This document shows, piece after piece, positions 1 to 17,817 of a stretch of 64,000 bases of DNA. Position numbers and translations under genes: made by a program. Origin of the DNA: Candidatus Campbellbacteria bacterium (GTDB lineage Bacteria > Patescibacteriota > Minisyncoccia > Phycocordibacterales > CSBR16-193). The stretch is from contig SLDR01000010.1 of the NCBI GenBank assembly GCA_007125155.1, positions 24,490-88,489 of the forward strand, given 5' to 3'. The stretch's first letter is position 1. Every line of letters begins with the position of its first letter. The notes below the pieces were generated by a model that saw nothing but the letters and a program-made list of their open reading frames with translations, had not been told where the DNA came from and did no database searches.

Positions 1-386
1 AAAAAAAGCTTATTTTCGCCCCAGATCCCTCTAAGTTCTTCCGCCTTCTCCTTTACACCCTTGTACATGATCAGCCGTCTTTCCAGGTCTTCTATACCTT
101 GCTCTTCCTCTTCGGTTAGGTCAAGAGAAGGAAGAAGGGATCTTGATTTTATAAGTATCAAGGTGGAGGCGACGAATATGAAGTGGGCGCTTTCTCGCAG
201 AGGAAATCGACCTTGCTTTTGTATATACGCTATAAAATCATCAGCCACCTGAGACAGGGCGATGTCATTTATAAAGAGCTTTCTTTTTTCTATCAGATCG
301 AGAAGAACGTCAAATGGACCGCTAAAGATCTCGGTTTTTACGTTGTAGACCTTGGTCCCACTGACTGTTTCTCGATCTACGCCCAT
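1..386 (-). CDS. scpA: Segregation and condensation protein A, N-terminal part (runs off the window edge)
   Basis: Manual translation from ATG at 386: MGVDRETVSGTKVYNVKTEIFSGPFDVLLDLIEKRKLFINDIALSQVADDFIAYI...FIFVASTLILIKSRSLLP, matching the ScpA F-x-GP-x-D-x-LL-x-LI and L-x-x-KSR-x-LLP motifs. Not in the ORF track. Confidence 0.9.
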   Translation of the reverse strand, partial: MGVDRETVSGTKVYNVKTEIFSGPFDVLLDLIEKRKLFINDIALSQVADDFIAYIQKQGRFPLRESAHFIFVASTLILIKSRSLLPSLDLTEEEEQGIEDLERRLIMYKGVKEKAEELRGIWGENKLF

Positions 387-477
387 TTTTTAAATATAGC
401 GCGAAAGATACCTTTATTCAATGTTTTCTACTTTTTCTGTCATTTTTGTTCGCCGTTGACTCGGTAGAGATAGATCT

Positions 478-486
478 TGTGGATAA
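478..486 (-). promoter_or_regulatory. Perfect DnaA box (TGTGGATAA = TTATCCACA on the minus strand)
   Basis: Exact 9-mer consensus between the divergent scpA and candidate ncRNA promoters. Confidence 0.55.
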
Positions 487-491
487 TTGAA

Positions 492-519
492 TTTGCAAAT
501 TATCTATGCGTTGTATAAT
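492..519 (+). promoter_or_regulatory. Sigma70 promoter for the candidate ncRNA
   Basis: TTGCAA (493-498) and a perfect TATAAT (514-519). The spacer is short (15-16 nt). Predicted +1 is about 526-528. Confidence 0.6.
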
Positions 520-526
520 TCTAAGT

Positions 527-773
527 AGGGACCTTTGAGAAGCGAATCGCAAAAACGATTCAGTTGTTTAAAATGACCTAAAGCTGTTCGGAAAAGATGT
601 GATTACCTACGGGGAAAGCCGGACATACCGAGGATTCGATATATCTTCTAAAGCGCGCGGAAGATGAAGGTTACTACCTACGGGGAAAGCCGTCGGAAAC
701 AAAGATGTCATTTCCGAAAGTGGACACTCAAGGGTGTTCGGTTTATCTTAAATAACAAACTTTTCAAGGTCCT
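527..773 (+). ncRNA. Candidate structured non-coding RNA of unknown family
   Basis: Closing stem 529-542/760-772, second long-range stem 563-571/748-756 and several internal hairpins. An exact 18-nt repeat TACCTACGGGGAAAGCCG occurs at 604-621 and 675-692. No long ORF; flanked by a promoter and a terminator. Confidence 0.7.
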
Positions 774-774
774 G

Positions 775-846
775 AACAAAAGCCCCGCCGAGCGGGTCTT
801 TTGTTTTTAAAACAAAAGACCCGTCTATTTTTTAAAGACGGGTCTT
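775..846. terminator. Two back-to-back intrinsic terminators (ncRNA on +, ORF 857..1075 on -)
   Basis: AACAAAAGCCCCGC-CGA-GCGGGTCTTTTGTT (775-805) and AAGACCCGTCT...AGACGGGTCTT (816-846). Confidence 0.75.
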
Positions 847-856
847 AAAATGTGGA

Positions 857-1075
857 TCATAGTCCGATCTTGCTTTTGCTCAGCACCCTGAGAAGTGGGG
901 ACGAGACTTTCACATGTCTGGTTTTGACATGATCTAAAACCGTGATCGACTTGACCTTCAGACATATGTCAGGTCCGTGATCGATCTTTTCCAGATCAAC
1001 TACTCCCTCGATCGCGACGTCCTTAAAGTCTGTTTTTCCCCTGTTCGCCTCCTTGATGAAAACTTCAGCTTCCAT
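857..1075 (-). CDS. Small hypothetical protein (72 aa)
   Basis: GGGAGG RBS (1081-1086), upstream boxA-like motif, TTTACT-17-TTTAAT promoter and a downstream terminator. Confidence 0.7.
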   Translation of the reverse strand: MEAEVFIKEANRGKTDFKDVAIEGVVDLEKIDHGPDICLKVKSITVLDHVKTRHVKVSSPLLRVLSKSKIGL

Positions 1076-1100
1076 TATTACCTCCCATGAGTATTACTTT

Positions 1101-1112
1101 TTTATAAAGAAC
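1101..1112 (-). promoter_or_regulatory. boxA-like element GTTCTTTATAAA
   Basis: Between the promoter and RBS of ORF 857..1075; resembles rrn boxA (GCTCTTTAACAA / GTTCTTTGAAAA). Confidence 0.55.
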
Positions 1113-1278
1113 TTTATTGACGACTCGAAACATTAAAGCATGAAATAATAAATAAGTAAATAGCTTGAAAACATAGCGATCCGGGTCTTTTAGGGCCGAC
1201 TCCTTAAGGGCGATCGGATTGACAAATCGGCATCTATGATAAAGAATTCCAAAAGGTCTTGGAACAACAAACAACATT

Positions 1279-1290
1279 GATCTTTAAAAG
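1279..1290 (+). promoter_or_regulatory. boxA-like element GATCTTTAAAAG
   Basis: Downstream of TTGACA (1219-1224) and abutting the AGGAGG RBS of ORF 1303..1878. Confidence 0.5.
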
Positions 1291-1302
1291 GAGGTTTTTG
1301 AG

Positions 1303-1878
1303 GTGACAAAAAAAATGAGAGAACAGGATCTACTCGAAAGGCAGGTTGGACTTTTGAACATGTGCAAAGCAAACAGGGACCATGAAAGAAGGTCTTATGA
1401 AAAGGTATTAAGATCAGCCGATTCTCCCATTGAGTGCTTCTACGTGGCGTGTTCTTCATTCTGCGATCTTGATCTTAAGTGGCGAGCACTTGCGAAAGCG
1501 GAAAAAATGTTGGCCTATGAACTCGGTTCAAGAAAGGTCGCAGCTGAAGTAATGACGAGTTCATACATATCATTGATAGAGCAAGAGTTCAAGCGCATGC
1601 TTTTTTTTGAAAAGAGGATCCAAGAACTTGATGATATGCTTATTTCGGCAAAGTCTTTCGAAGAATGTTTGAGTGTATTCCTCAGATCCTTATTCGTTTT
1701 CGATAAATTCAAGAATCTCGAAATGGGGATGGCTTGTAGGGATCTGAGTATAAGAGCTCTTGGAAAAGCGAAAACTCATGTATTGAACAAAAAGCAAAGA
1801 CACCATCTCCGGGACTGTTTCAGATACTTTCGATATTTGACCGATGAGAATGCCGATGAAGCTGAAGTTTCTGAATAA
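1303..1878 (+). CDS. Hypothetical helical protein (191 aa)
   Basis: Long ORF with an AGGAGG RBS, a TTGACA promoter and a terminator at 1892-1925. Confidence 0.75.
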   Translation: MTKKMREQDLLERQVGLLNMCKANRDHERRSYEKVLRSADSPIECFYVACSSFCDLDLKWRALAKAEKMLAYELGSRKVAAEVMTSSYISLIEQEFKRMLFFEKRIQELDDMLISAKSFEECLSVFLRSLFVFDKFKNLEMGMACRDLSIRALGKAKTHVLNKKQRHHLRDCFRYFRYLTDENADEAEVSE

Positions 1879-1891
1879 TGATGTTCATTTC

Positions 1892-1925
1892 AACCACCCG
1901 AATGTAAAAATTCGGGTGGTTTTTA
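1892..1925 (+). terminator. Intrinsic terminator
   Basis: AACCACCCGAAT-GTAAAA-ATTCGGGTGGTT followed by a T-run. Confidence 0.8.
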
Positions 1926-1937
1926 TTTGCCGTCGTC

Positions 1938-2954
1938 TTAAGAGAATCCCAAAAGGGCGGATATGAATATGACATAGAATAATACGTAAAAAGCCCCTTC
2001 CCACGAATTTATGTTCTTTGAGATGCCGGATAGCACAAAAAGGAATGTCGCTATCGCCAAAAAAGGCAGTCCGACCGAATATGTCTGATCATCAAGTTCG
2101 ACTCTGAAGAAAAGAGCCGGCAGGCCAACAACAACCATCATATTGAATGCGTTCGATCCAAAAATGTTACCTAGGGCCACATCAAAGCGTTTCATTAGCG
2201 CCGCCTTGATCGATACCAGAAGTTCAGGTAAAGAAGTTCCTATGGCAACGGCGGTTATGGTGATGGCCCCTACCCCCATCCCGAGGATCACAGACAGTGA
2301 TATGACCGAATCTACCAAATACTTGGAGCTAATTCCAAGTATGGCAACACCGATGACGAACATCATCATGTCATTGATCTTCAAACTCGGTCTTTCTACC
2401 GGTCTATTCTTATGACATTCCTTCATCGACAGATGGCTTGTGTGGTCTCTCCTGTCGGCCCTGGAGGGCAGTTTTTCGACTTCTTTGTTATTATTCTTGT
2501 CCCCGTCCTTGAAGGCGTAAAGGATGTATATTACATATACCAGGAGCATTATTATCGCTTCAAAAAAGGTTATTATGCCGTCCCAGGCAACTGCAAGAAA
2601 TATCGCGGTGCCGATGGCCAAAAGAGGAAGCTCGGTATTAATAAGACTTTTGGTAGCCACTAAACGTCCCGCCACCACGGCCGAGAATCCAACAACCAAA
2701 AGGATATTGGCCAGATTCGATCCAACGGCGTTCGCCGGCGCGAATTCTGTCAGACCCTTATAAGCCGCAAAGAACGAAGCGATCAATTCAGGGAATGAGG
2801 TTCCCAGACTTACTATGAGAACACCTACAATGAAGGGTGATAGGCCGATGGCTAAACCGATCTTCTCAGACCCCTTAAGAAGCCAGTCCGCGCCCTTGAC
2901 CAGTCCCAAGATCGAGATGAGAAAAATGATAGTCCATATAATAAGGGATTCCAT
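1938..2954 (-). CDS. Calcium/sodium antiporter (YrbG/CaCA family)
   Basis: Two alpha repeats (GTSFPE...GSNLAN and GTSLPE...GSNAFN) and about 10 TM helices. Confidence 0.92.
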   Translation of the reverse strand: MESLIIWTIIFLISILGLVKGADWLLKGSEKIGLAIGLSPFIVGVLIVSLGTSFPELIASFFAAYKGLTEFAPANAVGSNLANILLVVGFSAVVAGRLVATKSLINTELPLLAIGTAIFLAVAWDGIITFFEAIIMLLVYVIYILYAFKDGDKNNNKEVEKLPSRADRRDHTSHLSMKECHKNRPVERPSLKINDMMMFVIGVAILGISSKYLVDSVISLSVILGMGVGAITITAVAIGTSLPELLVSIKAALMKRFDVALGNIFGSNAFNMMVVVGLPALFFRVELDDQTYSVGLPFLAIATFLFVLSGISKNINSWEGAFYVLFYVIFISALLGFS

Positions 2955-2966
2955 CTGTTCATTTTT

Positions 2967-4367
2967 TTACCCTTTCTTTTTCCTTTCGGTTTTTAGACCA
3001 AGTTCATTAAGTTGACCTTCCTCTATCTCCGACGGGATGTCCATCATAAGGTCCCTACCCTCTCCGGTCTTTGGAAAAGCTATCACTTCGCGGATACTTG
3101 ATTCTCCTTGAAGGACGGCAAGCAATCTATCCATTCCAACCGCTATCCCTCCGTGGGGAGGAACTCCGTAGCTGAAGGCGTCAAGCAAATGTGAGAATTC
3201 TTCTTGTTGCTTTTTGGAAAAACCGATCAGATCAAAAACGGTCTTTTGTACATCAGCTTCGTGAATACGAATGCTTCCACCGGCGATCTCAAATCCGTTA
3301 AGAGTAAGGTCAACTTGTTCGGAGATCACATCCTCCGGAGCGTCGGAAAGTTTTTTCAGGTCTTCTTTCCTTGGCGCTGTGAACATGTGGTGTTCAGGCA
3401 TCAAGTATCCAAGCTCACTTTTTTCTTTTTCAAAAAGCGGAAAGTCAACCACCCATGCGAAGCCGAGCTCGTTCGGATCATCGGGGTTTTTTCTTATATC
3501 AGGGCGATCGGAACCGTATTTCTCCATGATATCTTTGTGGTTCAAACGAGGCCAAGGGGTCTCGGTCATGTGTTTATTCGGGAAGAGTTCGGTTATCATC
3601 TTGGTGAACATCTCTTCCACGAGAGCCATTACATCCTCTCTGTCAATGAATGAGCATTCGATGTCAAGTTGAGTGAATTCCGGCTGTCGATCTCCTCTGG
3701 TGTCTTCATCCCTCATACAACGTGCGATCTGGAAGTACCTTTCAAATCCACCTATCATCAGAAGTTGTTTATACTGCTGAGGAGATTGAGGAAGTGCGTA
3801 GAATGACCCCCTGTAAATCCTTGAAGGTACGACATAGTCACGTGCCCCTTCAGGGGTCGAACGGGTCAAGATGGGTGTCTCTATTTCAATGAAGTCCTTT
3901 TTTATAAGAAAGTTCCTTGTAAAGTTGTTCACGGAAGATCTTGTTCTGATATTATCTTGAATGCGTTTCCTTCTGATATCCAGGTACCTGTATTTCATTC
4001 TTATCTCCTCATTTACCTCGTAGCCGTCCGTTGAAAGATCGAATGGCGGTGTGTCTGATTCGGAAATGATCTCCAATGAGGTCAGTTCCATTTCGATGTT
4101 ACCCAACGGTTCATCGGGATTGATCATTTTGTCCGGTCTGCTTTTGACTTCCCCTTCAGCGGACACTATCCACTCTGGGCGGACTTGATCGGCAAGGGAG
4201 TGAACGTTCTCAGGCTTAGGCAAGACCACAACCTGAACTTTTCCTGTCTCGTCCCTGATGTCCAAAAAGATAAGCTTTCCGTGGTCACGACGTATATCTA
4301 TCCTTCCCAGAAGTTTGACGGTGTCACCGATCTTTTCTTTTAGGTTCTTTATCTTGGTTCGTTTCAT
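2967..4367 (-). CDS. aspS: Aspartate--tRNA ligase, short form lacking the GAD insertion
   Basis: OB-fold RRDHGKLIFLDIRD; STPEGARDY, LPQSPQQYKQLLM, RQPEFTQLD, PPHGGIAVGMDR motifs. Confidence 0.97.
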   Translation of the reverse strand: MKRTKIKNLKEKIGDTVKLLGRIDIRRDHGKLIFLDIRDETGKVQVVVLPKPENVHSLADQVRPEWIVSAEGEVKSRPDKMINPDEPLGNIEMELTSLEIISESDTPPFDLSTDGYEVNEEIRMKYRYLDIRRKRIQDNIRTRSSVNNFTRNFLIKKDFIEIETPILTRSTPEGARDYVVPSRIYRGSFYALPQSPQQYKQLLMIGGFERYFQIARCMRDEDTRGDRQPEFTQLDIECSFIDREDVMALVEEMFTKMITELFPNKHMTETPWPRLNHKDIMEKYGSDRPDIRKNPDDPNELGFAWVVDFPLFEKEKSELGYLMPEHHMFTAPRKEDLKKLSDAPEDVISEQVDLTLNGFEIAGGSIRIHEADVQKTVFDLIGFSKKQQEEFSHLLDAFSYGVPPHGGIAVGMDRLLAVLQGESSIREVIAFPKTGEGRDLMMDIPSEIEEGQLNELGLKTERKKKG

Positions 4368-5791
4368 GTTCCTTTTTTAATGTTATTTAAATAGTCCAGG
4401 AGAAGGATGATCGGGGCCCCCAATGATCCCTTAGCCAGATTATCGTGTTCTCCGGCTTCCATTCTCGGAGCAATGTCGATATGAGCCCATGAATCAGTAT
4501 ATTCCGTGAACTCTTTCAGGAAAGCGGCCGCACTACAGGCTCCGCCGTTCGGAGATTTTCTACTTGCGTTCACAAGGTCGGTGAATTCCCCTTTCATATC
4601 TTTACCGTATTCGTAACTCATCGGCATATGCCAAACTCTCTCGCCGGTCCTTTCTCCGGATCTTAAGAGCGCGTTCTTGAGGTCTTCGTTATCGGAGAAT
4701 AACGCGGAATATTTATCTCCCAAAGATACGACAGAGGCCCCGGTCAAGGTGGCTGTATCAATTACTGTCTTTGGCTTGAATCTCTTTAAATAATTTAATG
4801 CATCGGCCAATACAAGCCGTCCTTCGGCATCGGTATTTATCACTTCTACAGTTTTTCCGGACATCATGGTAAGTATATCTCCCGGCTTGTAGCTTGAGCC
4901 GGAAACAACATTTTCCACTGCGGGTATTACGGCCACGATATTGAGCTTCATTTTAAGTCTGGCTGCCGCTATGACGGTATGTATGACCGCGCCTCCTCCG
5001 CTCATATCCATATGCATTCCCAAGGAAGCTCCACCCGGTTTTAAGTTTATTCCTCCGGTATCGAAGGTTATACCTTTACCCGCCAGAGCAATGGGTTGCT
5101 CGTCGCTCTTTGTTCCGTTGTATTTCATAACTATCAGGTAAGGTCCATCATCAGAGCCTCTGCCAACACCCAATATTCCCTCCATTTTCAGGGAGGATAT
5201 CTTTTTTTTATCCAGTATCGTTACTTTGACTCCCGTATCTTTGGCTGCTTTTTTCACTTCTTTTACCAAGAAACTCGGTGAAAGCTCGGTCCCCGGGGTG
5301 TTGCACAAAAAACGCGCTTTGTTAATTTCTTCTCCCGCGATCACGCCCTTTTCGATACCGGCCCTGAAGTCTTTTGAGATATCCCCGAAGATCGTTAAAA
5401 AACTTATTCGTTTTTCCCTAGAATTCTTGTCGCTCTTTCGGTGATCAAAAGAAAAATCAGCCATAAGCGCATTGACTGCGAACAGAAAACCCGCATGTTG
5501 ATCATTGATATCCATCACACTGACGGAATGTTTTATGTCGTCGTATGATATGCCAATGTCCGTGACATGCGATTCCTTCGCCATCCTGAGCGCGCGGCGT
5601 AGCGTGTAGACGTATCTTTGAAGATCAAGATCCTTATTGGCCGGTATCTCAATGTTTAATTCCACTCTACCGTCCTCATACTCCTTAAGCCCGGTTTTGT
5701 TCTTTTCACTGAATATCAGCCTGACTATTCGCCGGGGAGCATTAGAGATCTGTTTTTTAGTGAATCTAATTTTCATACTTTTACTTATCAC
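4364..5791 (-). CDS. pepA: Leucyl aminopeptidase (M17 family)
   Basis: GKGITFDTGG, DMSGG, NTDAEGRL, DTATLTGA and WAHIDIA motifs. Confidence 0.95.
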   Translation of the reverse strand: MISKSMKIRFTKKQISNAPRRIVRLIFSEKNKTGLKEYEDGRVELNIEIPANKDLDLQRYVYTLRRALRMAKESHVTDIGISYDDIKHSVSVMDINDQHAGFLFAVNALMADFSFDHRKSDKNSREKRISFLTIFGDISKDFRAGIEKGVIAGEEINKARFLCNTPGTELSPSFLVKEVKKAAKDTGVKVTILDKKKISSLKMEGILGVGRGSDDGPYLIVMKYNGTKSDEQPIALAGKGITFDTGGINLKPGGASLGMHMDMSGGGAVIHTVIAAARLKMKLNIVAVIPAVENVVSGSSYKPGDILTMMSGKTVEVINTDAEGRLVLADALNYLKRFKPKTVIDTATLTGASVVSLGDKYSALFSDNEDLKNALLRSGERTGERVWHMPMSYEYGKDMKGEFTDLVNASRKSPNGGACSAAAFLKEFTEYTDSWAHIDIAPRMEAGEHDNLAKGSLGAPIILLLDYLNNIKKGT

Positions 5792-6777
5792 TCGGAAAAA
5801 AGTATTCCCATCGAACTTCTTACTTCCTTAATGGTCGATCTCGCTCTCTGCCCCGCTTTCCGGGCACCCTCACTCAATATCCTCTCGACCTCCTCGGGCT
5901 TCTTTTCATACTTTTGTCGTCTTTCCCTGAATGGTTGGGTATAAGCGCTCAGTTTTTCGGAGAGGAGGTCCTTGCTTTCCTTGTATCCAATTCCGCCTTT
6001 AATGTATCTCTCTTTTAATGAAGTTGTCTCTTTATGCGAGGCCACCAGAGAGTATAGCTTAAAGACGGAACAACTATCAGGGTCTTTGGGTTCGTCGACA
6101 CCCTTTGAATCCGTTGGGATCTTCATTACCGCTTGATTTATATCTTCCGGCTCTGCGAACAGAGATATCGTGTTACCGTAGCTTTTACTCATTTTTCTGC
6201 CGTCGGTACCCGGAATGGTGCCGACGGGCCCGAGTATGATCCCTTCCGGGACAGGAAAGACCTCTTTATAGGTTGAATTGAATTTTTCAGCCACATCTCG
6301 GGCATATTCTATATGCTGGCGTTGGTCCTCGCCGACCGGAACGAATTGCGCTTTGTGTATCAGTATATCGGCGGCCATTAGTATTGGGTAATCAAAGGTT
6401 CCGGCGTTCACTTCCTCCTTTTTGGACTGAGCGTCCTTATAAGCATGTGCCCTCATAAGGTAGGAGACATTGATGATACAGTTGAAATACCAGCAGAGCT
6501 CAGTCACTTCCGGTATATCGGATTGTTTATAAAAACATATTTTATCAGGGTCGATACCGGCACCAAGGCAATCGAGTGCCAGAGAGCGAGTGTTATCAAG
6601 AAATAAAGAAGCATCCTTAACGCTCGTCATTGCATGTAGGTCGGCAATAAAAAAAGTGCAGTGGTACTTATCTTTAAGTTCTATAACCTGCCTTATTGAG
6701 CCTAAGAAATTACCAAGATGCAAGTTTCCGGTGGGTTTCATTCCTGATACGAGTATCGGTTTAGTGTTCTTTTTCAT
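5788..6777 (-). CDS. trpS: Tryptophan--tRNA ligase
   Basis: SGMKPTGNLHLGN, YPILMAADIL, VPVGEDQRQH and KMSKS motifs. Confidence 0.97.
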   Translation of the reverse strand: MKKNTKPILVSGMKPTGNLHLGNFLGSIRQVIELKDKYHCTFFIADLHAMTSVKDASLFLDNTRSLALDCLGAGIDPDKICFYKQSDIPEVTELCWYFNCIINVSYLMRAHAYKDAQSKKEEVNAGTFDYPILMAADILIHKAQFVPVGEDQRQHIEYARDVAEKFNSTYKEVFPVPEGIILGPVGTIPGTDGRKMSKSYGNTISLFAEPEDINQAVMKIPTDSKGVDEPKDPDSCSVFKLYSLVASHKETTSLKERYIKGGIGYKESKDLLSEKLSAYTQPFRERRQKYEKKPEEVERILSEGARKAGQRARSTIKEVRSSMGILFSE

Positions 6778-6899
6778 GACTTGAATTTTTTTATTTCATA
6801 CTATCATAAAAGAAAAAAAAACCGAATATCTCGGTTTTTTTTATGAATTGATCTTTGGGTTTTATTGTCTTAGGCGAACATTGATATCCGCCCATCTAC

Positions 6900-7979
6900 T
6901 CATATCCCTTCATTTTTCAACTCCTCGATCGTCTTTCTTGCTCGTCTTGAGATCTTCTTCGGCATTGTTATTTTTATCGTAACCAACAGATCACCTCGTC
7001 CCGATCTGGAACCGGGAACCCCTTTTCCGCGAACTCTCAGGACCTCGTTGAACCCAATTCCGGCCGGGATCTTAATGTCAATCCTTCCGTCAAGGGTTTC
7101 GATGGTGTATGTGGATCCAAGAAGCGCATCGGAGAGCTTTATGTTCAGATCCATTCTGAGATCGTCTTTATCTCTCTGGAAGATCGGATGCTTTTTGACG
7201 TGAACTTTGGCGTAAAGGTCTCCTGTTACACCTCCGGGCACCGCTTCTCCCATTCCCGAAAGTCTTATCATCTCTCCGTCTTCGACACCGGCGGGTACGT
7301 TGATGTTTATCTCTTCCTCTTTCCTGTAAACACCTGTTCCTTGGCACTGCTTACACTTGACTTTCGGAACCTTACCTTTCCCGAAACAGACCCCGCAAAC
7401 TTTTTCTGTAGTGATCGTACCTAACAGCGACCGTCTTGATTCTCTGATCTTACCGCGACCGTTGCAAGTTGGACAGGTTACCGTGTCGCTTTCCTTCTCC
7501 GCCCCACTTCCTCCGCAAAGGTCACATGTCGAATTCTTTTGGATAAGTATTGAACGATTTGTTCCAAATATGGATTCCTCGAATGAAAGTTCTATATCTA
7601 TCGCAATATCCCTACCGCGTGAGGTCTGATCCCTTTTTCTTCCGAAGAAATCCCCGAATATATCTCCAATGTCGAAATCATCGAATCCCTGGGCCTCTTT
7701 GAATCCGCCAAATCCGGAAAAATCAAAACCCTCAAAACCGGATGCGTATTGATCGGCATTATTTCCCCCTCCGGAGAAAACTCGGCCATATGTATCATAC
7801 TCGGAACGTTTTTGGTCATTGGACAGGATCTGATAAGCCTCATTTATCTCTTTGAATTTTTCCTCGTCTCCGGATTTTTTATCAGGGTGGTATTTATGAG
7901 CAAGCTTTCGAAAGGCTTTCTTTATATCATCCTTGTTGGCACTTTTGTTGATCCCTAAAATTTGATAGTAATCCTTCAT
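6900..7979 (-). CDS. dnaJ: Chaperone DnaJ
   Basis: J-domain HPD, G/F-rich region and four CxxCxGxG repeats. Confidence 0.98.
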   Translation of the reverse strand: MKDYYQILGINKSANKDDIKKAFRKLAHKYHPDKKSGDEEKFKEINEAYQILSNDQKRSEYDTYGRVFSGGGNNADQYASGFEGFDFSGFGGFKEAQGFDDFDIGDIFGDFFGRKRDQTSRGRDIAIDIELSFEESIFGTNRSILIQKNSTCDLCGGSGAEKESDTVTCPTCNGRGKIRESRRSLLGTITTEKVCGVCFGKGKVPKVKCKQCQGTGVYRKEEEININVPAGVEDGEMIRLSGMGEAVPGGVTGDLYAKVHVKKHPIFQRDKDDLRMDLNIKLSDALLGSTYTIETLDGRIDIKIPAGIGFNEVLRVRGKGVPGSRSGRGDLLVTIKITMPKKISRRARKTIEELKNEGI

Positions 7980-8051
7980 AAGTTCACAGTATATACTTCT
8001 TCAGCCCGCCATTCAACTTAAGCTTGATCGTGGCAGATCCGGATCAATTTA

Positions 8052-10001
8052 TTACTTTTTGTTCTCGCTGTCTTCATTGTCGTCCTCTTTCTTTTCTTCA
8101 TAAGTGGCGTCTCTTACCGTTTCATCTTTTTTGTTATCTTCATCCCCCGGCGCACCTTGCGTCTCAGGCTGATCCGTACTTTTATCACTTCCACTTTGTT
8201 CATATTGCCCCAGTTTTGAAGATTCTTCGGTCAAAGATCGGGTCGCGGATTGAATACCCGAAAGATCCTCGGATGTCTTTATTTTGTTCAGTTCGTCTAT
8301 TTTTTCCTTTACCTTTTTTTTGACATCCTCAGGTATGTTGTCCCCTTTATCAGTGATCATTTTTTCCGCCTGATAGATCGCCTGGTCCGCCGTGTTACGA
8401 GTTTCAGCCAACTGCTTCTTTATTTCATCCTCCTTTTTATGTTCTTCCGCTTCTTTTCTCATCTTTTCTATCTCATCATCGCTGAGTCCCGTGCTGGCCT
8501 CTATCCTTATGGATTGGGCTTTGTCCGTCTTCTTGTCCTTGGCCGTTACATTCAGGATACCGTCTTTGTTGATGTCGAAGATAACTTCTATCTGAGGGAT
8601 ACCGCGTGGAGCCGGTTCTATACCGTCGAGTATGAATCTTCCAAGACTTTTATTGTCGGCCGCCATCGGTCTTTCGCCTTGCAATACGTTAATTTCAACC
8701 GAAGTCTGTCCGTCAACGGCGGTTGAGAATGTCTGTGATTGGGATGCGGGTATTGCGGTGTTCCTCTCTATCAGTTTAGTGGCAACTCCCCCCATTGTTT
8801 CAATTCCCAAGGACAGGGGTATAACATCGAGAAGTAGTACATCTTTGACCTCTCCCGAAAGAACCCCCGCCTGAATGGCCGCTCCGAGTGCGACGACCTC
8901 GTCGGGATTGATACTCTTGTTTGCCTCTTTGCCGAAATATTCCTTTACTCTTTCTTGTATTTTAGGCATCCTTGTTTGTCCTCCGACCAGTATGATCTCA
9001 TCTATCTCGTTCACTGAGAAAGGAGATGCCGCGATGGCCCTTTCGGTTATCTCCATGGCTCGGTCGATATACTCCTGCGCCAAGTTCTCGAGTGTTGCTC
9101 TTGTAAGTGTTATCAGGAGATGTTTGGGCCCTTCTTCATCGGAAGTAATAAAAGGAATGTTTATCTCCGTTTCAGTGGTGGTGGAGAGTTCATGTTTGGC
9201 CTTTTCTGCGGCTTCGTCAAGCCTTTGGAGCGCCAGTGCATCACCACGCACGTCAATGCCTGATTCTTTCTTGTACTCGTCAGCTATCCAGTTGATTATT
9301 TTTTGATCGATATCTCTCCCGCCCATATGGCTGTCGCCGTCTGTTGATTTCACTTCCACCGTTGACTCATCGTCATCATCTCCCACCTCCAGGACAGAGA
9401 TGTCGAATGTTCCCCCGCCGAAATCAAAAACCACCAATTTTTCGTTCTTCTTTTTGTTGAATCCATATGCCAGCGCAGCGGCAGTCGGTTCGTTTATGAT
9501 GCGCTTTACATCAAGTCCGGCGATCTTACCTGCGGCTTTGGTGGCTTTACGTTGGTCGTCATTGAAGTAGGCGGGAACCGTTATCACCGCTTCGCTTATT
9601 GTTTCTTTGAGTTTACTCTCCGCGTCACTTTTGAGTTTTTGCAGTATCATGCTGGATAATTCTTCGGTCCTGTACCACTTATCACCCATTTTGATCTCCA
9701 CTCCTCCTTTTTCAGATTTTCTCATCTCGAAGGAAACGTTCTCTTTGTCTCTTTGTACCGCCTCATCTTCGAAGTTGTGCCCAACAAGTCTCTTCATTCC
9801 GTAAACCGTGTTTTGAGGATTTGTTACAGCCTGCCTTTTTGCCAGAAGCCCGACAAGCCGGTCTCCTTTTTTAGATATGGCCACTATGGAAGGTGTTGTT
9901 CTGTTGCCTTCCGAGTTCTCGATTATACGGGGCTCGTTACCTTCCATTATTGCCACCGCAGAGTTTGTAGTACCAAGATCTATTCCAATTATTTTTCCCA
10001 T
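8052..10001 (-). CDS. dnaK: Chaperone DnaK (Hsp70)
   Basis: [17 protein letters not shown] and DFGGGTFD motifs. Confidence 0.99.
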
Positions 10002-10042
10002 ATTATTATATTAATGTTTTAATTATATGAATAAAAATATGA

Positions 10043-10693
10043 CTAATTTTCTTTTGCCGACACTTCATCTTCGTTATCGTTCAGATACTCTCCAACCCTC
10101 ACCTTGGCACAGCGAAGGAGTTGGTCCCGTATCATGTATCCATCCTGAATTACCTCAACAATGATGTTGTCTTTACTTTTGTCTTCCACCTTAACGGTTC
10201 CGACCGCTTCGTGTAAGCAGGGATCGAAATTTTGATCTATCGGGGAGAATGAATATATACCTTTATCATTAAGGATCTTTATAAGCTGGTTTAGTACGTT
10301 CTCCATCCCCTCCTTCCATTCCTTCGGTAGTTCTTCCCAATTACCGCTATTGGCGGTTGCCATTTTAAAACTGTCCAAAACCGGCAATATACTCTCTGCA
10401 AACTTTCTTTCAGACCTTTCTCCGGCTTCCCGGGCCTCTTTTTCGTATCTTCTTCTTATGTTGACGAGGTCGCTTTTAGCTTTTTGCCACCCATCCAAAT
10501 ATTCCGCTTTTTCATTACGGCACTTTTTAAGTTCTATTTTAAGTTTATGCAATTTATCTTTAGATCCACCTTCTTCCTCTTCGATCGCATCGGGCTCCTC
10601 TTCGAAAGTGACGTCATTCTTTTCATACTCTTCGCCATTGATGGATACTTTTTTTTCAAGGTCTTTCTTTTTGTTTCTATTGTCCGCCTTCAT
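10043..10693 (-). CDS. grpE: Nucleotide exchange factor GrpE
   Basis: LPVLDSF, FDPCLHEAV and QDGY...LLRCAKVRV motifs; directly upstream of dnaK. Confidence 0.95.
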   Translation of the reverse strand: MKADNRNKKKDLEKKVSINGEEYEKNDVTFEEEPDAIEEEEGGSKDKLHKLKIELKKCRNEKAEYLDGWQKAKSDLVNIRRRYEKEAREAGERSERKFAESILPVLDSFKMATANSGNWEELPKEWKEGMENVLNQLIKILNDKGIYSFSPIDQNFDPCLHEAVGTVKVEDKSKDNIIVEVIQDGYMIRDQLLRCAKVRVGEYLNDNEDEVSAKEN

Positions 10694-10829
10694 TTCTTGA
10701 TATTTATGATAAACAGCATCACTATAATATGTTTAAACAAATCTGTTTCTGTAACGTGTCATAATTATGAGAATAACATTGATCAGACACCAATATTCAT
10801 TTAGCTCCGGCTCTTTATTGGAGTAACCC

Positions 10830-11243
10830 TTATCTTTTGGACCACTGAGGTGACTTGCGTGATTTTTTAAGTCCGAATTTCTTTCTCTCCTTCCTTCTCG
10901 GATCGCGTTTCAGAAAACCCGCCTTTTTAAGTTTGGGCCTAAGATTCGGATCTATTTCGGTTAACGCTCTTGCGATTCCGTGCAAAAGCGCCCCGGCTTG
11001 GCTAGAAGACCCACCGCCTTTAATGAGTGCGGACACGTGAAATTTCTTATCCACTCCGCTTTCTTCAAAAACCCTTTCCACCAAGATCCTCAGTTCCTCT
11101 CTGGGAAAGTAGTCTTCCAAACTCCTTTCGTTTATTGAAAAGGAATTCTCTTTGTTTTCAAATAAACGAACTCTAGCGACCGCCGATTTACGCCGACCTG
11201 CCGCCTCAATGTATTTTTGTTTTGTATTTTCTGTTGTAGCCAT
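10830..11243 (-). CDS. rpsI: 30S ribosomal protein S9
   Basis: GRRKSAVARV and RDPRRKERKKFG...PQWSKR. Confidence 0.98.
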   Translation of the reverse strand: MATTENTKQKYIEAAGRRKSAVARVRLFENKENSFSINERSLEDYFPREELRILVERVFEESGVDKKFHVSALIKGGGSSSQAGALLHGIARALTEIDPNLRPKLKKAGFLKRDPRRKERKKFGLKKSRKSPQWSKR

Positions 11244-11246
11244 GAT

Positions 11247-11621
11247 CTATTCAAATATTTTCAAACGATTCATTAGTTTGGGCCGTAACTTGTTATTGGG
11301 TAACATGCCGTATACGGCCCTCCTGAATGCCTCCCCCGCTCCGCGTCTCTCGATCAATTTTTTTAAAGTTTCTTCTTTTTTACCACCCGGATATCCGGAA
11401 TATTTTACATATACTTTGTTTACCGTTTTGTTTCTCGTTGTTATGCGAACCGAAGATGCATTCTCGATAACCACTTTTTTTCCCATGATGCGGTTTTTCA
11501 CGAAATCCGGGGAGTTCTTTCCCCTTAAAGTTTCGGCCGCCTCTGTCGCAACACGTCCGAACGATCTGCCGGCGGCATCTATGGTTACCTCATCATTTGT
11601 TTTTATGTCTTTTGTGTTCAT
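11247..11621 (-). CDS. rplM: 50S ribosomal protein L13 (short form)
   Basis: IDAAGRSFGRVAT, YSGYPGG and AVYGMLPNNKL motifs. Start moved to ATG 11621 (MNTKDIK). Confidence 0.95.
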   Translation of the reverse strand: MNTKDIKTNDEVTIDAAGRSFGRVATEAAETLRGKNSPDFVKNRIMGKKVVIENASSVRITTRNKTVNKVYVKYSGYPGGKKEETLKKLIERRGAGEAFRRAVYGMLPNNKLRPKLMNRLKIFE

Positions 11622-11661
11622 GTTCCGAGTTATTCTATTCGTGCACTGTTGAAATGTCAAT

Positions 11662-12012
11662 TTATTCGACAAATTCTATGCAAGCCATAGGGCTGGCGTC
11701 TCCCACTCTAACGGAAAGCTTGCTTATTCGAGTGTAACCCCCGCTTCTTTCCTTAAACCTGGGAGCCAGATCCTCGAAAACCTTTAATGAAGCGTCTTTT
11801 CCGACCAGAGCGCTCACCCTTCTTCTGTCGGAGAGAGTGCCTTTTTTTCCATAAGTGATCAGCCGTTCCGCGAAAGGCCTAAGCTCTTTAGCTTTCATTT
11901 CAGTTGTTTTTATACGCTCATTTACAATAAGTGCTCTTGCCAATGAATTCAAAAGAGCCTTTCTTTGCTTCGAGGGTCTGTTGAATGAGCGGATTTTATT
12001 GTGGTGTTTCAT
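11662..12012 (-). CDS. rplQ: 50S ribosomal protein L17
   Basis: [13 protein letters not shown] and RSGGYTRI motifs. Confidence 0.97.
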
Positions 12013-12033
12013 ATTTATATCGTTTTTTCAAAC

Positions 12034-13014
12034 CTATTTTTCTTTCGGTGACAGATCATGTTCCGCAAGAATATCCTTGATCTCTTGAACCGCTTTTTCT
12101 CCGAGACCTTCCAAAGCCAGAAGGTCTTCTTCCGATTTTCTTATGAGGCCACTGACCGTTCTTACGCCGGCATTTGAAAGTGCATTCATTGTCCTGGCCG
12201 AAAGACCGATCTCCTCGACGGGGGTTTTCAAGAACATCTCCGTGTCCTGTCCGTCTTTGGTCATCTCTTCTTCCCCGGTTTCGGACATATCATATAGTTC
12301 ACTCTCGCTGGCCTCTTCTTTGAAACCTACAACAGCCTTTAGTTGCTCTATCATAATTGAGATGGATCGTTCCAATGCCTCGTGGGGAGATATCGTTCCA
12401 TCGGTCTCTATGGAGATCTTTAGAAGGTTGAAATCGGTCCTGTCGCCAACACGCATATTCTCAACTTCATAAGAAACCCTTCTTATGGGAGTGAAGACAG
12501 CGTCAACCGCTATTGTCCCAATTGCCATCTTTTCCTTTTTCAGCTCATCCTTTGTAACGAAGCCAAGTCCTTGTTCGACTGTAAGTTCCATGTCCAAGGA
12601 AGCTTTCTTGTCAGTAAGTGTCGCGATATGTTGCTCCGGATTAACTATCTCGACTGCGCTGTTTGATGCGCCTAAGTCACCGGCCACAATAACGCCATCC
12701 CCCTTCTTTGAAAGGGTTATCTTCTGTGGTCCATCCGTATGAAGTCTCGCTCTGATCTTTCTGATGTTCAAAAGTATTGTTATAACATCCTCCTTCACGC
12801 CGTCTATGGTTGAGAATTCGTGATTCACACCTTCAATTTTTACGGTTGTCACCGCAACTCCCGGTAGCGATGAGAGGATTATCCTACGGATCGAATTTCC
12901 GAGAGTGTGGCCGTAACCGGGATAAAGACCTTCTATTTCATAGACCCCTTTGTTGTCTTCCTCAAGAATTATCTTTGGCCTGGAAGGAGTCACTATGGTC
13001 GGTTGTGTATTCAT
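12034..13014 (-). CDS. rpoA: RNA polymerase alpha subunit
   Basis: GYGHTLGNSIRRIILSSLPG, HEFSTIDGVKEDV and an alpha-CTD. Confidence 0.99.
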   Translation of the reverse strand: MNTQPTIVTPSRPKIILEEDNKGVYEIEGLYPGYGHTLGNSIRRIILSSLPGVAVTTVKIEGVNHEFSTIDGVKEDVITILLNIRKIRARLHTDGPQKITLSKKGDGVIVAGDLGASNSAVEIVNPEQHIATLTDKKASLDMELTVEQGLGFVTKDELKKEKMAIGTIAVDAVFTPIRRVSYEVENMRVGDRTDFNLLKISIETDGTISPHEALERSISIMIEQLKAVVGFKEEASESELYDMSETGEEEMTKDGQDTEMFLKTPVEEIGLSARTMNALSNAGVRTVSGLIRKSEEDLLALEGLGEKAVQEIKDILAEHDLSPKEK

Positions 13015-13044
13015 ATTTAAACTTTTTAATTTTTTAAATGATTA

Positions 13045-13659
13045 TTAACGGCTGTAAAATTCCAGAACCGCATTTATATCAAAAAAAAGATCAACCTCTT
13101 CTTTGATCGGATCTCCTTTTAAAGTGACGGATTTTTTGGCGGGATCGACCCGTAGCCACGAAACCACCGTTGACAGAGTCAGGGACTCATCCTCCATGTT
13201 TTTGAAAAGCCCTTTTTCCAGACTCCTTGGTTTAATTGTAACTGTGTCGCCGACCTTGAGCTTATATGAAGGTATGGTTACTTTTCGGTCATTTACCATT
13301 ATATGGCCGTGTGATATGAGCTGGCGGCAAAATAATCTGGTTGGTCCGAATCCCGATCTGTTCAGAACACTGTCGAGGCGCTTTTCCAAAGACTCAAAAA
13401 GTGCATCAGGTATTTCTTTGCCTTTCTGTTTCATTGCCTGACGAACAAGCCTTTCAAAGGATCTCTCGGATAAGGCATAAGAATATCTACCTTTCTGTTT
13501 TTCTATGAGACGAAGACCATAGTCAGTTATTTGTTTTCTTCGCTTACTTTGTCTTTTTGATTTCTTTGATTCCGAAAGTGCGAATTTCTGCGTCTGTGTC
13601 TTTTCAAACACGGGCGCTCCGAGTCGTTTTGCAATTTTATATTTTGGTCCTATCTTCAT
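13045..13659 (-). CDS. rpsD: 30S ribosomal protein S4
   Basis: YGLRLIEKQK, LEKRLDS, RQLISHGHI and EFYSR motifs. Confidence 0.97.
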   Translation of the reverse strand: MKIGPKYKIAKRLGAPVFEKTQTQKFALSESKKSKRQSKRRKQITDYGLRLIEKQKGRYSYALSERSFERLVRQAMKQKGKEIPDALFESLEKRLDSVLNRSGFGPTRLFCRQLISHGHIMVNDRKVTIPSYKLKVGDTVTIKPRSLEKGLFKNMEDESLTLSTVVSWLRVDPAKKSVTLKGDPIKEEVDLFFDINAVLEFYSR

Positions 13660-13714
13660 AATTTTAATGGTCTATTGATATTTGAATAGTTTGATATGGT
13701 TTATCGTTAACCCA

Positions 13715-14143
13715 CTAAACCCTTCTGGGTTTCTTGGGTCTCGGTCCATTGTGCGGTACCGGTGTAACGTCGACTATCTTTACTATCGAAAGACCTTTGG
13801 ATACGAATCCTCTTATGGATGATTCACGCCCCGAACCGACACCTTTTACCGAAACCTTTATATCTCTTGCACCCATTGCATAAACCTGCTCACCGATTAA
13901 TTCACCCACTTTGGCCGCAGCGAACGGAGTTCCTTTCTTTGCGCCCTTAAACCCCAAAGATCCCGCCGATGAACTGGTTATTATATTCCCTTTGATATCG
14001 GCGAAAGCCACCTTGGTATTATTGTATGTCGCATGAACGTACAGTGTCCCTGTGTCAAGCTTTCTTTTTATGGTCTTACCGCCTTTTCGATATTTACCCT
14101 CGCTTTCACTTCCGGACTTTTTTACAATTCGTTTTTTTCCCAT
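13715..14143 (-). CDS. rpsK: 30S ribosomal protein S11
   Basis: ATYNNT, KGTPFAA and DVTPVPHNGPRPKKPRRV. Confidence 0.98.
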   Translation of the reverse strand: MGKKRIVKKSGSESEGKYRKGGKTIKRKLDTGTLYVHATYNNTKVAFADIKGNIITSSSAGSLGFKGAKKGTPFAAAKVGELIGEQVYAMGARDIKVSVKGVGSGRESSIRGFVSKGLSIVKIVDVTPVPHNGPRPKKPRRV

Positions 14144-14222
14144 TTTTAATTATTCTTGCTTTGAAAATATGAATCCACGACTTTTAATATTTACCATAAA
14201 AGCTAACCTATGTAAATAGAGT

Positions 14223-14606
14223 TTATTTCTTTTCCGTCTTCCTGCGACCTGTACCCATTGTTTTTCTAATATTTCCCCTCCTGGTCCTGGAGTTTGTTTT
14301 TGTTCTTTGGCCTCGACAGGGAAGCTTTCTTGAGTGACGCATTCCGCGATATGATTTTATATCCTGTTGACGCTTTATGTCCGAAGATACCCGCCTCCTG
14401 AGGTCTCCTTCGATTATGTAATTTTCCTCTATATACTTCCTGATCTTCACTTCCTCATCATCGGTGAGTTCATTTGACCTTTTACCTCTGTCTATGCTAA
14501 GAGCATCTAGTATTTCACCGGCACGCGAAAAACCTATTCCGTAAACTTCGGTTAATGCTATTTCAAGACGTTTATTGTCAGGGATGGTTATACCTATTAT
14601 GCGCAT
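14223..14606 (-). CDS. rpsM: 30S ribosomal protein S13
   Basis: LTEVYGIG, YRGMRH and LPCRGQRTKTNSRT motifs. Confidence 0.98.
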   Translation of the reverse strand: MRIIGITIPDNKRLEIALTEVYGIGFSRAGEILDALSIDRGKRSNELTDDEEVKIRKYIEENYIIEGDLRRRVSSDIKRQQDIKSYRGMRHSRKLPCRGQRTKTNSRTRRGNIRKTMGTGRRKTEKK

Positions 14607-14722
14607 ATTGAAATTTATTTTCGCAACTTACTTTATACTCAATGTGTTAATAATGCAACCCCCCGAGGGGATAACTTTCGGCCGACCCTCAATGATTTCA
14701 AATCTTTCATTTACAAAAAACT

Positions 14723-14839
14723 TCAACCTTGACGTTGTTTGTGGCGAGGGTTTGATTTACATATGACAAAAACCCTTCCTTGTCGTCTTACGGTTTTGCA
14801 ATTTGGACATATTTTTTTTACTGAAGATCTGACTTTCAT
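14723..14839 (-). CDS. rpmJ: 50S ribosomal protein L36 (zinc-binding C+ form)
   Basis: Manual translation [38 protein letters not shown]; below the ORF-track size cutoff. Confidence 0.98.
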
Positions 14840-14848
14840 ATTTTTATA

Positions 14849-15067
14849 TTACATTCGTCGTATTATCCTACCTTTTTCGCTACTATAAGGATCGACTTCA
14901 ACTATAACTTTATCTCCGATCAGGACCTTTATTCTGAATTTCCTCATTTTTCCGGCAAGATATGCCTGCATTTCAGTACCATCGTCCAGTTCGACCTTGA
15001 ACCTGGTATCAGGATACGCTTCGGTCACAACACCTGTTACCTGTTTAATGTCTTTATCCTTTGTCAT
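14849..15067 (-). CDS. infA: Translation initiation factor IF-1
   Basis: GVVTEAYPDTRFKVEL, AGKMRKFRIKVLIGDKV and KGRIIRR. Confidence 0.97.
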   Translation of the reverse strand: MTKDKDIKQVTGVVTEAYPDTRFKVELDDGTEMQAYLAGKMRKFRIKVLIGDKVIVEVDPYSSEKGRIIRRM

Positions 15068-15152
15068 TTATGTAATGTTCTATATTTTTGATTTTGATCG
15101 GTCAAGATACTTGATGGTACCAAAATAGCTGAAAAAGTCAACATTTAGTTGA

Positions 15153-16535
15153 TCAATGTTCCGTTGTTATCTTGATTCTTTCAGGATTGCTTGGCAGGTA
15201 AGGCATCCAAAAAGGAGAGATGGATATCTTTGCTTCCACTATCGGATTTTCGCTTTGATTTATTATCAGATTGATCCTCTCCGTGTCTCTGACGGAAAGC
15301 CCGGCCAGATTTTTCGATAAAAGCTCCTTATCTATCCTTTGGTAAAAATCCACGTCTCCTGATACCGTGAATGTAATTTCATCTCTTTCATACAGGTTAT
15401 GCGTATCTTCGGGCTCAAAGGTTACACGTTCCCAGTTCTTTATCTCGACATGCTTTTCTTCATCGAAGGTTTCTTTGTAAAGATGACCGACGAGATCTTC
15501 TTCTTTCAATATTACTCCATGTAATACGGCATTCATCTCCAGAACAGCTTTTCCGTTTTCGTACCTTATTTTTTCACTTTCCTCCACCGTGTAGGCTCCT
15601 TTCAGCATTAAAAAACCACCCGGAACAGACCTTTCGACTTCGGATAGCAACTCCTCTTTTATTCCTTCCCGAATATCGAATCTTACCTGTTCGAGATCGT
15701 TTTCATCCACTATCGGGATCGTTCCTGACCCTCCGCCCGTCATTGGCGTCTCTGACCTGGCATAAATACCTTCAAATTGCGGCATACCCTCGAATCCCGG
15801 GATGGTGAATCTTGTCGGCCCTATATTGTAATTTGATCCGACTTCGTCTGCATATACATTTGTTCGCACAGTGCCCGGTTCTCCGCCACTCATTCCCGGA
15901 ACGGTCAGATTTCCCTGTATTCTGAATATCAGACCCTCGGGACTTTTGAACCTGGTATTTGTTATAAGAACCTGTTGAGATTCGCTGAATTCATTGTAAA
16001 CGGTGATCATTCCGGTAGCCTTTTCTTCAATACGCTCTTCTCCGGTCGCTTCCAGTGTTGCTTGTCGATGTTTTTTGGTATTTATACTAATGATATCGAA
16101 ACCGATATCTTGAGCCGAAGGTTCTTTGTACACGGTTAGTGTTTTATCAATATCGGCCTTTTTGCTTATCGGCGTAATGGTTACCTCGGCTGTGGCGAAT
16201 TGTGAAGATATTCCGAACCCCAAGACCATAATGGTTCCCAACCCCAACGCCATTCCTCCTATCCACCATGCGGTCTTTTTATTTTTCTTTTTTTCAAGTG
16301 GTGAGTATATTCTTGATGCATTATCTCTGTCTTCCGTATCTTCCGTATCATCATGTGATTCTTCAGGGATGTCGTTTTCCGTCTCCAGAGGAACCTTGAA
16401 ATCATGGATCTTACGCACATTGTTCTCTTTTTTATCTTCACCACTTACGCTATCCCCCGCGGGGCCATCTTCAAAACGAGGTGAAACCACATTCCTTATG
16501 GATCTTTTGTTATTTGGTGGTGTTATATCTTTCAT
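15153..16535 (-). CDS. Single-pass membrane protein with a baseplate-J-like extracytoplasmic domain
   Basis: Disordered N-terminus, one TM helix, then KATGMITVYN...NTRF...VYADEVGSNYNIG...MTGG, resembling baseplate J/gp47-like segments (recalled, not searched). Confidence 0.65.
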   Translation of the reverse strand: MKDITPPNNKRSIRNVVSPRFEDGPAGDSVSGEDKKENNVRKIHDFKVPLETENDIPEESHDDTEDTEDRDNASRIYSPLEKKKNKKTAWWIGGMALGLGTIMVLGFGISSQFATAEVTITPISKKADIDKTLTVYKEPSAQDIGFDIISINTKKHRQATLEATGEERIEEKATGMITVYNEFSESQQVLITNTRFKSPEGLIFRIQGNLTVPGMSGGEPGTVRTNVYADEVGSNYNIGPTRFTIPGFEGMPQFEGIYARSETPMTGGGSGTIPIVDENDLEQVRFDIREGIKEELLSEVERSVPGGFLMLKGAYTVEESEKIRYENGKAVLEMNAVLHGVILKEEDLVGHLYKETFDEEKHVEIKNWERVTFEPEDTHNLYERDEITFTVSGDVDFYQRIDKELLSKNLAGLSVRDTERINLIINQSENPIVEAKISISPFWMPYLPSNPERIKITTEH

Positions 16536-16655
16536 TGATTTTTTTTAAAATTCTTAAAAAATGGTTCATCACCATTTATTGATCCTAATTATAACTTATA
16601 ATCTTCAGTTTTTAAATTATCATATGAGGATATTCTGGTCGGATCCTCTTCTTTT

Positions 16656-17816
16656 TCACTCCGTTCCTTTGTCGGAATTGATCTTGCGGTTAACAAAGAG
16701 ACCGCAAATGATCATCTCCATATCGCTTTCATCAAAATCATACTTAACGATCTCGGAGAGATACTCATGCAATGGCCGGATCTCGGTTTCGGGATGCTTC
16801 TTTATCAGAACATTCTTGAACGCCATTTCGATCCTTTGGTTTGAGTTGAAATAGACGATATCGGGGATCCAGTTCATATTCTTTTCGTACTCCAGCTCCC
16901 AGAATTGCATAATTGAAGATATGGTGTTTTCCAATTTTTTCAAGAAACCCTTTTCGCATTCTTCCGAGAAGTACATTGAAACGTAAGAAAGAGCTACGCA
17001 TCGGGGAACTTCGAACTTCTTCTCAATTTCTTCCAAAATTTTCGAATACCCGTGGTGTATATGTAGGTGTTCTTTCACGACATCATTCTCGATAAGAGTG
17101 ATAAGTGTTTCCGAGGTATTCACGTTCACATATTTTTTCAGACCTTTCTCATTAGATCTTCTTATGAGATCCGTAACGGCGTCGTTTTTTGGAAAAAAAT
17201 AGACCGGAGTCGATCCGACCGTTTTTTTTATCTGAGATCGGAGTGACTCAAGAAGCTCTGCCGGCGCGACGGAATTGAAGAGAGAAATATCCAACTCCTT
17301 TGCTTCGATCCCGTACGGTTTTTTGGCCGGGTACCCATTCAAACAGACGGATGTCACTTCCTTTTTTATGAATTCTATGGAATCTTTTTTTTGAAGAATC
17401 AGATCGGGAGCGTCATCGATCTTCGCTATTTCCTTGCTTAAAATATCATCGATCAGCTCCTTAGTTATTCTAAAAGATGTATTTTCTTTGTGTGTGGTTT
17501 TGCTAAGGTAGCTGTATTGATAGGGAGAATCTATCATGAATACACATCTCTCAATGTAAAACTCAGTCAAACCATCACCTTTTGTCAGACCCCTGTGCGC
17601 TCTATCGGCAAGATCATTGATCACGGCAGTAACGGCCTGCTCAAGCTCCGTTATTGAGCTGAAAAGACCTTCGAGAGTGGTTCTGGTGTTGTTTATGTGA
17701 ATGAATATACCCTCTTCCCCGCTTTGGCCGGGGTCTATTAGCGCGCCCTGAACTCCGCTCTCGGACACATCAATGATCGCAACTGCAGGTAATTTTGAAC
17801 TCGCAAATAAATTCAT
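16656..17816 (-). CDS. Divergent FtsA/PilM-like actin-fold protein
   Basis: N-terminal AIIDVSESGVQGAL (phosphate-1-like), a LNGY motif and a second VNVNTSETLITL segment. Start moved to ATG 17816, just after the alaS stop. Confidence 0.55.
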   Translation of the reverse strand: MNLFASSKLPAVAIIDVSESGVQGALIDPGQSGEEGIFIHINNTRTTLEGLFSSITELEQAVTAVINDLADRAHRGLTKGDGLTEFYIERCVFMIDSPYQYSYLSKTTHKENTSFRITKELIDDILSKEIAKIDDAPDLILQKKDSIEFIKKEVTSVCLNGYPAKKPYGIEAKELDISLFNSVAPAELLESLRSQIKKTVGSTPVYFFPKNDAVTDLIRRSNEKGLKKYVNVNTSETLITLIENDVVKEHLHIHHGYSKILEEIEKKFEVPRCVALSYVSMYFSEECEKGFLKKLENTISSIMQFWELEYEKNMNWIPDIVYFNSNQRIEMAFKNVLIKKHPETEIRPLHEYLSEIVKYDFDESDMEMIICGLFVNRKINSDKGTE

Positions 17817-17817
17817 T

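Follow-up and report, generated by a model that had tools for sequence, protein, structure and literature searches.

At positions 527–773 of the plus strand of the window, by which we mean the entire 64-kb stretch of Candidatus Campbellbacteria DNA that was analyzed, lies a genuine and apparently undescribed non-coding RNA (ncRNA) gene of approximately 250 nt (about 247 nt by these coordinates), as judged from its folding signal, its homologues, covariation and RNA contigs. The gene is flanked by scpA (3–386, minus strand, Pfam ScpA) and by a short convergent ORF. Upstream of it we found a sigma-70-type promoter (492–519, plus strand) with a −35-like TTTGCA (492–497) and a −10 box TATAAT (514–519), which together match the consensus at 10 of 12 positions; the −10 box and its flanks are invariant in the alignment of all six sequences from the genus. 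An intrinsic terminator, composed of a hairpin and a U-run, follows on the same strand at 775–805, and a hairpin with a U-run is present 3′ of each of the eight units of the RNA that were identified in this study. These data support the view that the RNA is stand-alone, being transcribed from its own sigma-70 promoter and ending at an intrinsic terminator. Regulation in cis is unlikely, because the terminator comes directly after the RNA and the neighboring genes change between homologues. The original prediction is supported in that the RNA is structured, stands alone, acts in trans and contains a duplicated module. The region 775–846 contains two adjoining hairpins with overlapping inverted repeats, which are apparently the terminators of the two convergent transcripts. 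The convergent ORF (857–1075, minus strand) has 72 codons and no Pfam match, and a similar ORF was seen by eye at the matching place in the relative genome G003. Elsewhere in the window, two tiny ORFs (40267–40464, 65 aa, and 40633–40773, 46 aa) lie in a long intergenic gap; each has two CxxC motifs and the look of a zinc-ribbon microprotein, and each is followed by a terminator-like hairpin.

The plus strand of region 527–774 folds with a minimum free energy of −75.7 kcal/mol (z-score −3.81), which was equaled by none of 200 shuffled sequences, and the z-score of the minus strand is −3.07. Where changes among the homologues preserve G-U pairs, they agree with the plus strand, as originally predicted. 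The longest exact repeat within the RNA measures 18 nt, with identical copies at 604–621 and 675–692, whereas the longest repeat among 500 shuffled sequences was 12 nt; the 18 nt said to be identical in both modules are therefore present, and beyond what shuffling gives. Transcription is indicated by RNA run X1, an alkali sediment metagenome data set, which holds 0.44 of the sampled words from positions 400–900, about what a 230-base transcript would give. The X1 contigs matching positions 1–20000 have mean depths of 171 and 144 in two bins that share the RNA, and depths of at most 11.4 in 27 of 28 other bins, the one exception (138) being a bin with loose-ended contigs that look foreign. Assuming a start at position 527, and with two listed contigs removed, we back-calculated a depth of about 800 over 527–777, with the proviso that these contigs show neither the strand nor the true level and that DNA may be present in the library. 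By this indirect measure, one metatranscriptome contains the RNA, apparently at high depth, and the RNA is probably abundant. Another contig, with a depth of 31, spans positions 863–1117 over the convergent ORF.

The predicted structure starts with P1, a small hairpin with an A-rich loop, and P3, followed by a core. P1 (529–542 paired with 760–772) closes the RNA, with 93% of the alignment cells paired and two pairs showing double changes; in both units of the relative genome G007, P1 also closes, with a different sequence. The small hairpin P2 (544–561) is variable in sequence; it folds here and its variable counterparts were recognized by eye. P3 (563–571 with 748–756) is limited to the genus, where 95% of cells are paired and two pairs show double changes. 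The core consists of a first module hairpin (599–619), P6 (622–626 with 705–709), a purine-rich internal loop, P7 (635–639 with 693–697), and a three-way junction that is closed by P7 and holds P8 (643–665) and a second module hairpin with a four-base loop (670–690). In P6, three of five pairs show double changes and the G007 stems differ in sequence, the P6 stems of four of the eight units having been read by script. Double changes were found in three of the four P7 pairs over all eight units, and in two pairs of the P8 stem, which is 97.5% paired and whose loop contains GCGCGC (653–658), making it a candidate kissing loop. A variable hairpin near the 3′ end (722–739) is predicted from folding and is poorly conserved in sequence; all of these elements are on the plus strand. 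The −10 box, the pairing of the ends, the inner stem P3, the small hairpins and the terminator, as listed in the original prediction, are all present. For the full-length structure of 50 pairs, 94% of cells are paired in the six genus sequences and 10 pairs show double changes; none of 500 shuffles scored as high, and slid controls were 35–61% paired. For the core over eight units, 90% of cells are paired and 5 of 19 pairs show double changes, a count that was reached in 26 of 500 shuffles. The shuffle control ignores relatedness among what are only eight related units, and the structure was partly derived by RNAalifold from these same sequences, so that the covariation supports the fold without proving it. 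With this reading of the numbers, the alignment supports a predicted closed, multi-junction fold that includes a three-way junction as well as two bulged-G hairpins. Among the unpaired alignment columns, 28 of 119 are invariant, and these cluster in three places, namely the modules, the junction and the loop.

When 41 genomes were searched at the DNA level, full-length matches with 70–79% identity appeared in each of the five that belong to the same genus, and G007 gave a partial match. Using a covariance model built from the eight units, we located these units in seven of ten genomes of the family; the three genomes without a match are 97%, 96% and 69% complete. In G007, two complete units stand in tandem, with rmuC on one side and an L,D-transpeptidase gene on the other, and each unit has a closing stem and a terminator of its own. 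Within the genus the RNA neighbors a divergently oriented scpA, and in G007 the units come after rmuC; the ScpA protein of G007 is 55% identical, as compared to 69–72% within the genus. The RNA has been retained in two distant genera, one of which contains a duplication. A 14-base DNA palindrome is found in the 3′ hairpin region of each G007 unit (locus L007, about 1420–1650 and 1820–2030, minus strand). In a tree of ScpA plus ScpB (26 rows, with 4 of 30 loci dropped) the distribution of the RNA needs two changes, and loss and transfer are not separable, because the tree groups G007 with a non-carrier below the starred support. A palindrome-independent pattern applied to all species genomes returned 16 loci, of which four are real (recorded as Patescibacteria group, Ca. 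Campbellbacteria, Ca. Paceibacterota and Ca. Saccharibacteria) and none is a new unit. Over 401 genomes of the order, a pattern search matched in 11, four of them real and the other seven read as chance. The model R1 gave five matches in 151 genomes of the order, two of them real and the other three in a gyrase-like gene, a seryl-tRNA synthetase-like gene (both read from ORFs) and 23S rRNA; in 151 genomes of the class it matched this genome only. These large searches scored only 22 candidates per genome. Three of 12 metagenome loci are real, and all three equal or nearly equal known units. Five viral scans returned 0, 0, 2, 4 and 58 loci, none of them credible, and the best viral look-alike (L144) lies among direct repeats in an apparent replication gene. 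BLAST searches of phages and plasmids gave one 36-base chance match and no match, respectively, and the scpA loci of 24 further genomes contained no match. The range of the RNA is therefore narrow: it has been found in a few ultra-small bacteria of one family so far, with no members outside it among the genomes, metagenomes, viral contigs, phages and plasmids searched, although all these searches have limited sensitivity to diverged copies.

No Rfam 15 family matched the 64-kb window at the gathering cut-off, and at E-values up to 10 we observed only terminator-type matches touching the 3′ end of the RNA. Searches of the homologous loci were likewise negative, the best internal match being RT-18 (RF03021), which scored 23.6 bits against a cut-off of 41.3, in one unit only and with its stems broken in the alignment. 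The module and RT-18 have a UAGUA/GAAA internal loop in common, but none of the seven carrier genomes encodes a reverse transcriptase (RVT_1), a domain that is present in two of the three non-carriers. As the original prediction had judged by eye, the RNA is not tmRNA, RNase P RNA, SRP RNA or 6S RNA: none of these models matches at the locus, and tmRNA and RNase P RNA are found elsewhere in the genome (contigs C21 and C26, respectively). The RNase P RNA (C26:18337–18911) is about 575 nt long and has four long hairpins, whose basal stems are the same. The genome, which is 98.95% complete, has neither an SRP54-domain protein nor a match for SRP RNA. A Ro60/Y RNA was dismissed, there being no TROVE match in the genome, and so was a split-off piece of 23S rRNA, since the genome's own 23S keeps both of the hairpins that resemble the module. 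The literature searched contained no description of the RNA, including the available portions of PMC12990946, PMC5737381 and bioRxiv 10.64898/2026.07.01.735769, although supplements of motif surveys could list it. Terms for the RNA were likewise without a match in the accessible text of bioRxiv 10.64898/2026.10.21.760802.

In the homologues, the repeated module has a conserved register: a three-pair stem leads into an internal motif, ANUA facing GAA, beyond which come a stem of two pairs and the loop. ANUA and the opposite GAA are present in 16 of 16 module hairpins and AGUA in 13 of these, so only the second base of ANUA varies. We take this module to be the bulged-G motif, also called loop E or sarcin-ricin motif. 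AGUA is found in hairpin 1 of six of the eight units, with AUUA in the unit of the window, and in hairpin 2 of seven units, with ACUA in the unit of the window. The G of AGUA has thus been replaced by different bases in the two hairpins of the window unit (602–605 and 673–676), while it is kept in 13 of the 14 others. The original prediction had drawn the repeat as a CGG-GGAAAG-CCG hairpin. This hairpin does exist in the present genome, but all three of its pairs can form in only 3 of 10 modules, which were picked by pattern from six genomes (12 exist and two were missed), and the homologues point to the bulged-G register instead. In the genome's own 23S rRNA, two hairpins show the same bulged-G pattern, and the weak matches of the covariance model in the relative genome G068 fall exactly on two hairpins in domain I of 23S rRNA, presumably helices 11 and 23. 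Apart from the four-base loop, the consensus module is the same as the second of these 23S hairpins. The resemblance covers the internal motif, the two-pair stem and the short loop; the loop sequence differs, and the surrounding rRNA context is absent here. A third motif resembling the bulged-G pattern was seen by eye in the G007 units, in the internal loop between P6 and P7. Of the two equivalent sites originally proposed, the duplication of the module stands, but the equivalence does so only in part, as the second module lies in the three-way junction beside the hairpin with the palindromic loop.

The hexamer GCGCGC, a palindrome that the original prediction had overlooked, is invariant in all eight units, in which it sits towards the 3′ end of a loop whose length varies from 8 to 18 bases; in the seven units parsed by script, 2–10 nt precede it in the loop and 0–2 nt follow. 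A scan that allowed G-U pairs revealed no conserved internal partner for the hexamer in seven units; in the remaining unit it picked up a single site, at the upstream edge. In the predicted ensembles, all six positions are unpaired with a probability above 0.9 in four units, and the hexamer is partly paired in the other four. This invariant, exposed and self-complementary hexamer on the 3′ side of its loop has the layout that would be expected of a symmetric kissing loop. The SL1/DIS loop of HIV-1 is similarly arranged, its hexamer being preceded by purines on the 5′ side. According to the available part of PMC8472981, HIV-1 subtype B dimerizes via a hairpin loop with this very palindrome, GCGCGC. 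The likeness concerns a six-base motif and does not imply homology, and several units described here have longer A-rich loops. In the accessible text of PMC12286853, chains of OLE, GOLLD and ROOL are joined by symmetric palindromic kissing loops, which for OLE and GOLLD are backed by palindrome swaps. The eight units contain no palindrome-to-palindrome swap, and hence no covariation for self-pairing, which we infer from the layout of the loop. The invariance of the hexamer would fit recognition by a protein or a fixed outside partner equally well. On balance, we slightly favor the view that two molecules of the RNA pair with each other through their P8 loops.

Our preferred reading of the whole RNA is more tentative, and we place it slightly below an even chance: it may be a compact RNA that forms a homodimer through a kissing loop and serves as a protein-binding scaffold, on which four rRNA-like hairpins are displayed. 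According to this reading, the junction would present the hairpin loop with GCGCGC on its 3′ side, and loop-loop pairing between two molecules would yield a dimer, which could be a mixed one in a genome with two paralogues. Four hairpins that follow the 23S rRNA domain I pattern would be present in such a dimer and serve it as packing modules. These hairpins would probably be repeated sites for a protein that normally reads rRNA hairpins of this kind, and the dimer would act as a multivalent scaffold or decoy rather than as a cis regulator or antisense RNA. The loss of the G of AGUA in both hairpins of this genome speaks against the scaffold, and bL34, considered as the protein partner, is present in 8 of 10 genomes of the family in a pattern that does not track the RNA.

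The RNA could also act as a monomeric rRNA mimic. Its hairpins would then titrate one of three kinds of target, namely a ribosomal protein, an enzyme of assembly or modification, or a toxin that cuts rRNA, and the GCGCGC loop would be a protein site. This idea draws on the G068 matches to the two 23S hairpins and on the near identity of the consensus module to the second of them. However, the bulged-G module is generic, as its occurrence in RT-18 illustrates, the flanking rRNA context is not kept, and bL34 again fails to track the RNA. A mimic would moreover replace nothing, because the genome's own 23S has both hairpins, and we regard this explanation as unlikely. The clustering of invariant unpaired columns at the modules, junction and loop would suit a ligand-binding or catalytic RNA, whose pocket or active site would be built from conserved bases of the junction, leaving the modules with no role beyond packing the fold. 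Against this, the RNA is followed by a terminator with no downstream gene to switch, and no riboswitch or ribozyme of Rfam matches, which leaves this explanation quite improbable in our judgment. We give still less credence to a base-pairing RNA that uses the GCGCGC loop or the repeated 18-mer to recognize another RNA in trans. In favor of this idea, the loop is exposed and does not vary, and the genome contains 41 occurrences of its hexamer, one of them within a tRNA-Ala gene, but six bases confer little specificity; 16S rRNA was not found on contig C38, the one contig checked for it as a target of GCGCGC. The 18-mer, for which base pairing had been proposed originally, is itself structured and has no other site in the genome within three mismatches on either strand. 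A highly diverged SRP or 6S RNA would be in loose agreement with the size and end pairing of the RNA, and neither of these housekeeping RNAs passes the Rfam cut-offs anywhere in the genome. Nevertheless, this identity is very hard to sustain: a protein with an SRP54 domain is lacking, the fold is branched and the G007 units have no long rod, rod-like 6S candidates exist elsewhere, after ndk, and two of the three family genomes without a match are 96–97% complete. Finally, the protein sponge with GGA trinucleotides that the original prediction put forward, taken here as a Csr/Rsm-type sponge of the CsrB/RsmZ kind, or a short leader-peptide gene (ORF 664–810) is scarcely credible, since the nine GGA trinucleotides are no enrichment (7.0 ± 1.7 in shuffles, 18.6% of which reach nine), only one ANGGA is present, at the 5′ end, and CsrA is absent over the cut-off, while the ATG at 664 does open 48 codons but is missing in G007, and the ORF varies in length and frame among the homologues, in which overlapping ORFs are not conserved.

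The self-dimerizing scaffold that we prefer would place the RNA beside several known bacterial RNAs. OLE and ARRPOF, which form RNA-only dimers, and ROOL and GOLLD, which form nanocages, are also stand-alone multi-junction ncRNAs, and they self-associate by kissing loops, some of them palindromic, according to the available portions of PMC12286853 and PMC12990946; for the present RNA, such association is predicted. ARRPOF, with its 255 nt, is also close in size. In contrast to these four RNAs, the one described here has no Rfam match, a different fold and no conserved internal pseudoknot partner for its loop, and it has a narrow range within the CPR, with no plasmid or phage copy found in our searches. 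Like ornate ncRNAs, it is a stand-alone RNA with a covarying multi-junction fold. We regard it as a new RNA family outside every named one, which probably works like the self-associating ornate RNAs. A bolder version, which we consider rather doubtful, is that dimers formed via a retrovirus-like GCGCGC kissing loop, with four hairpins mimicking rRNA, would serve as a ribosome-related decoy or scaffold in minimal genomes that lack SRP.

The narrow range of the RNA, with one family so far, limits the generality of these findings. At about 250 nt, and with a predicted six-base dimer switch, the RNA would be an easy target for cryo-EM and mutagenesis. Very few ncRNA genes are retained in genomes of about 0.7 Mb, and an elaborate conserved RNA must therefore do something that is selected. 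The RNA bears on the question of what self-assembling bacterial RNAs are for. If the bolder reading is true, a retrovirus-like dimer with rRNA-mimic hairpins would add to the CPR bacteria a class of functional RNA assembly that is new.
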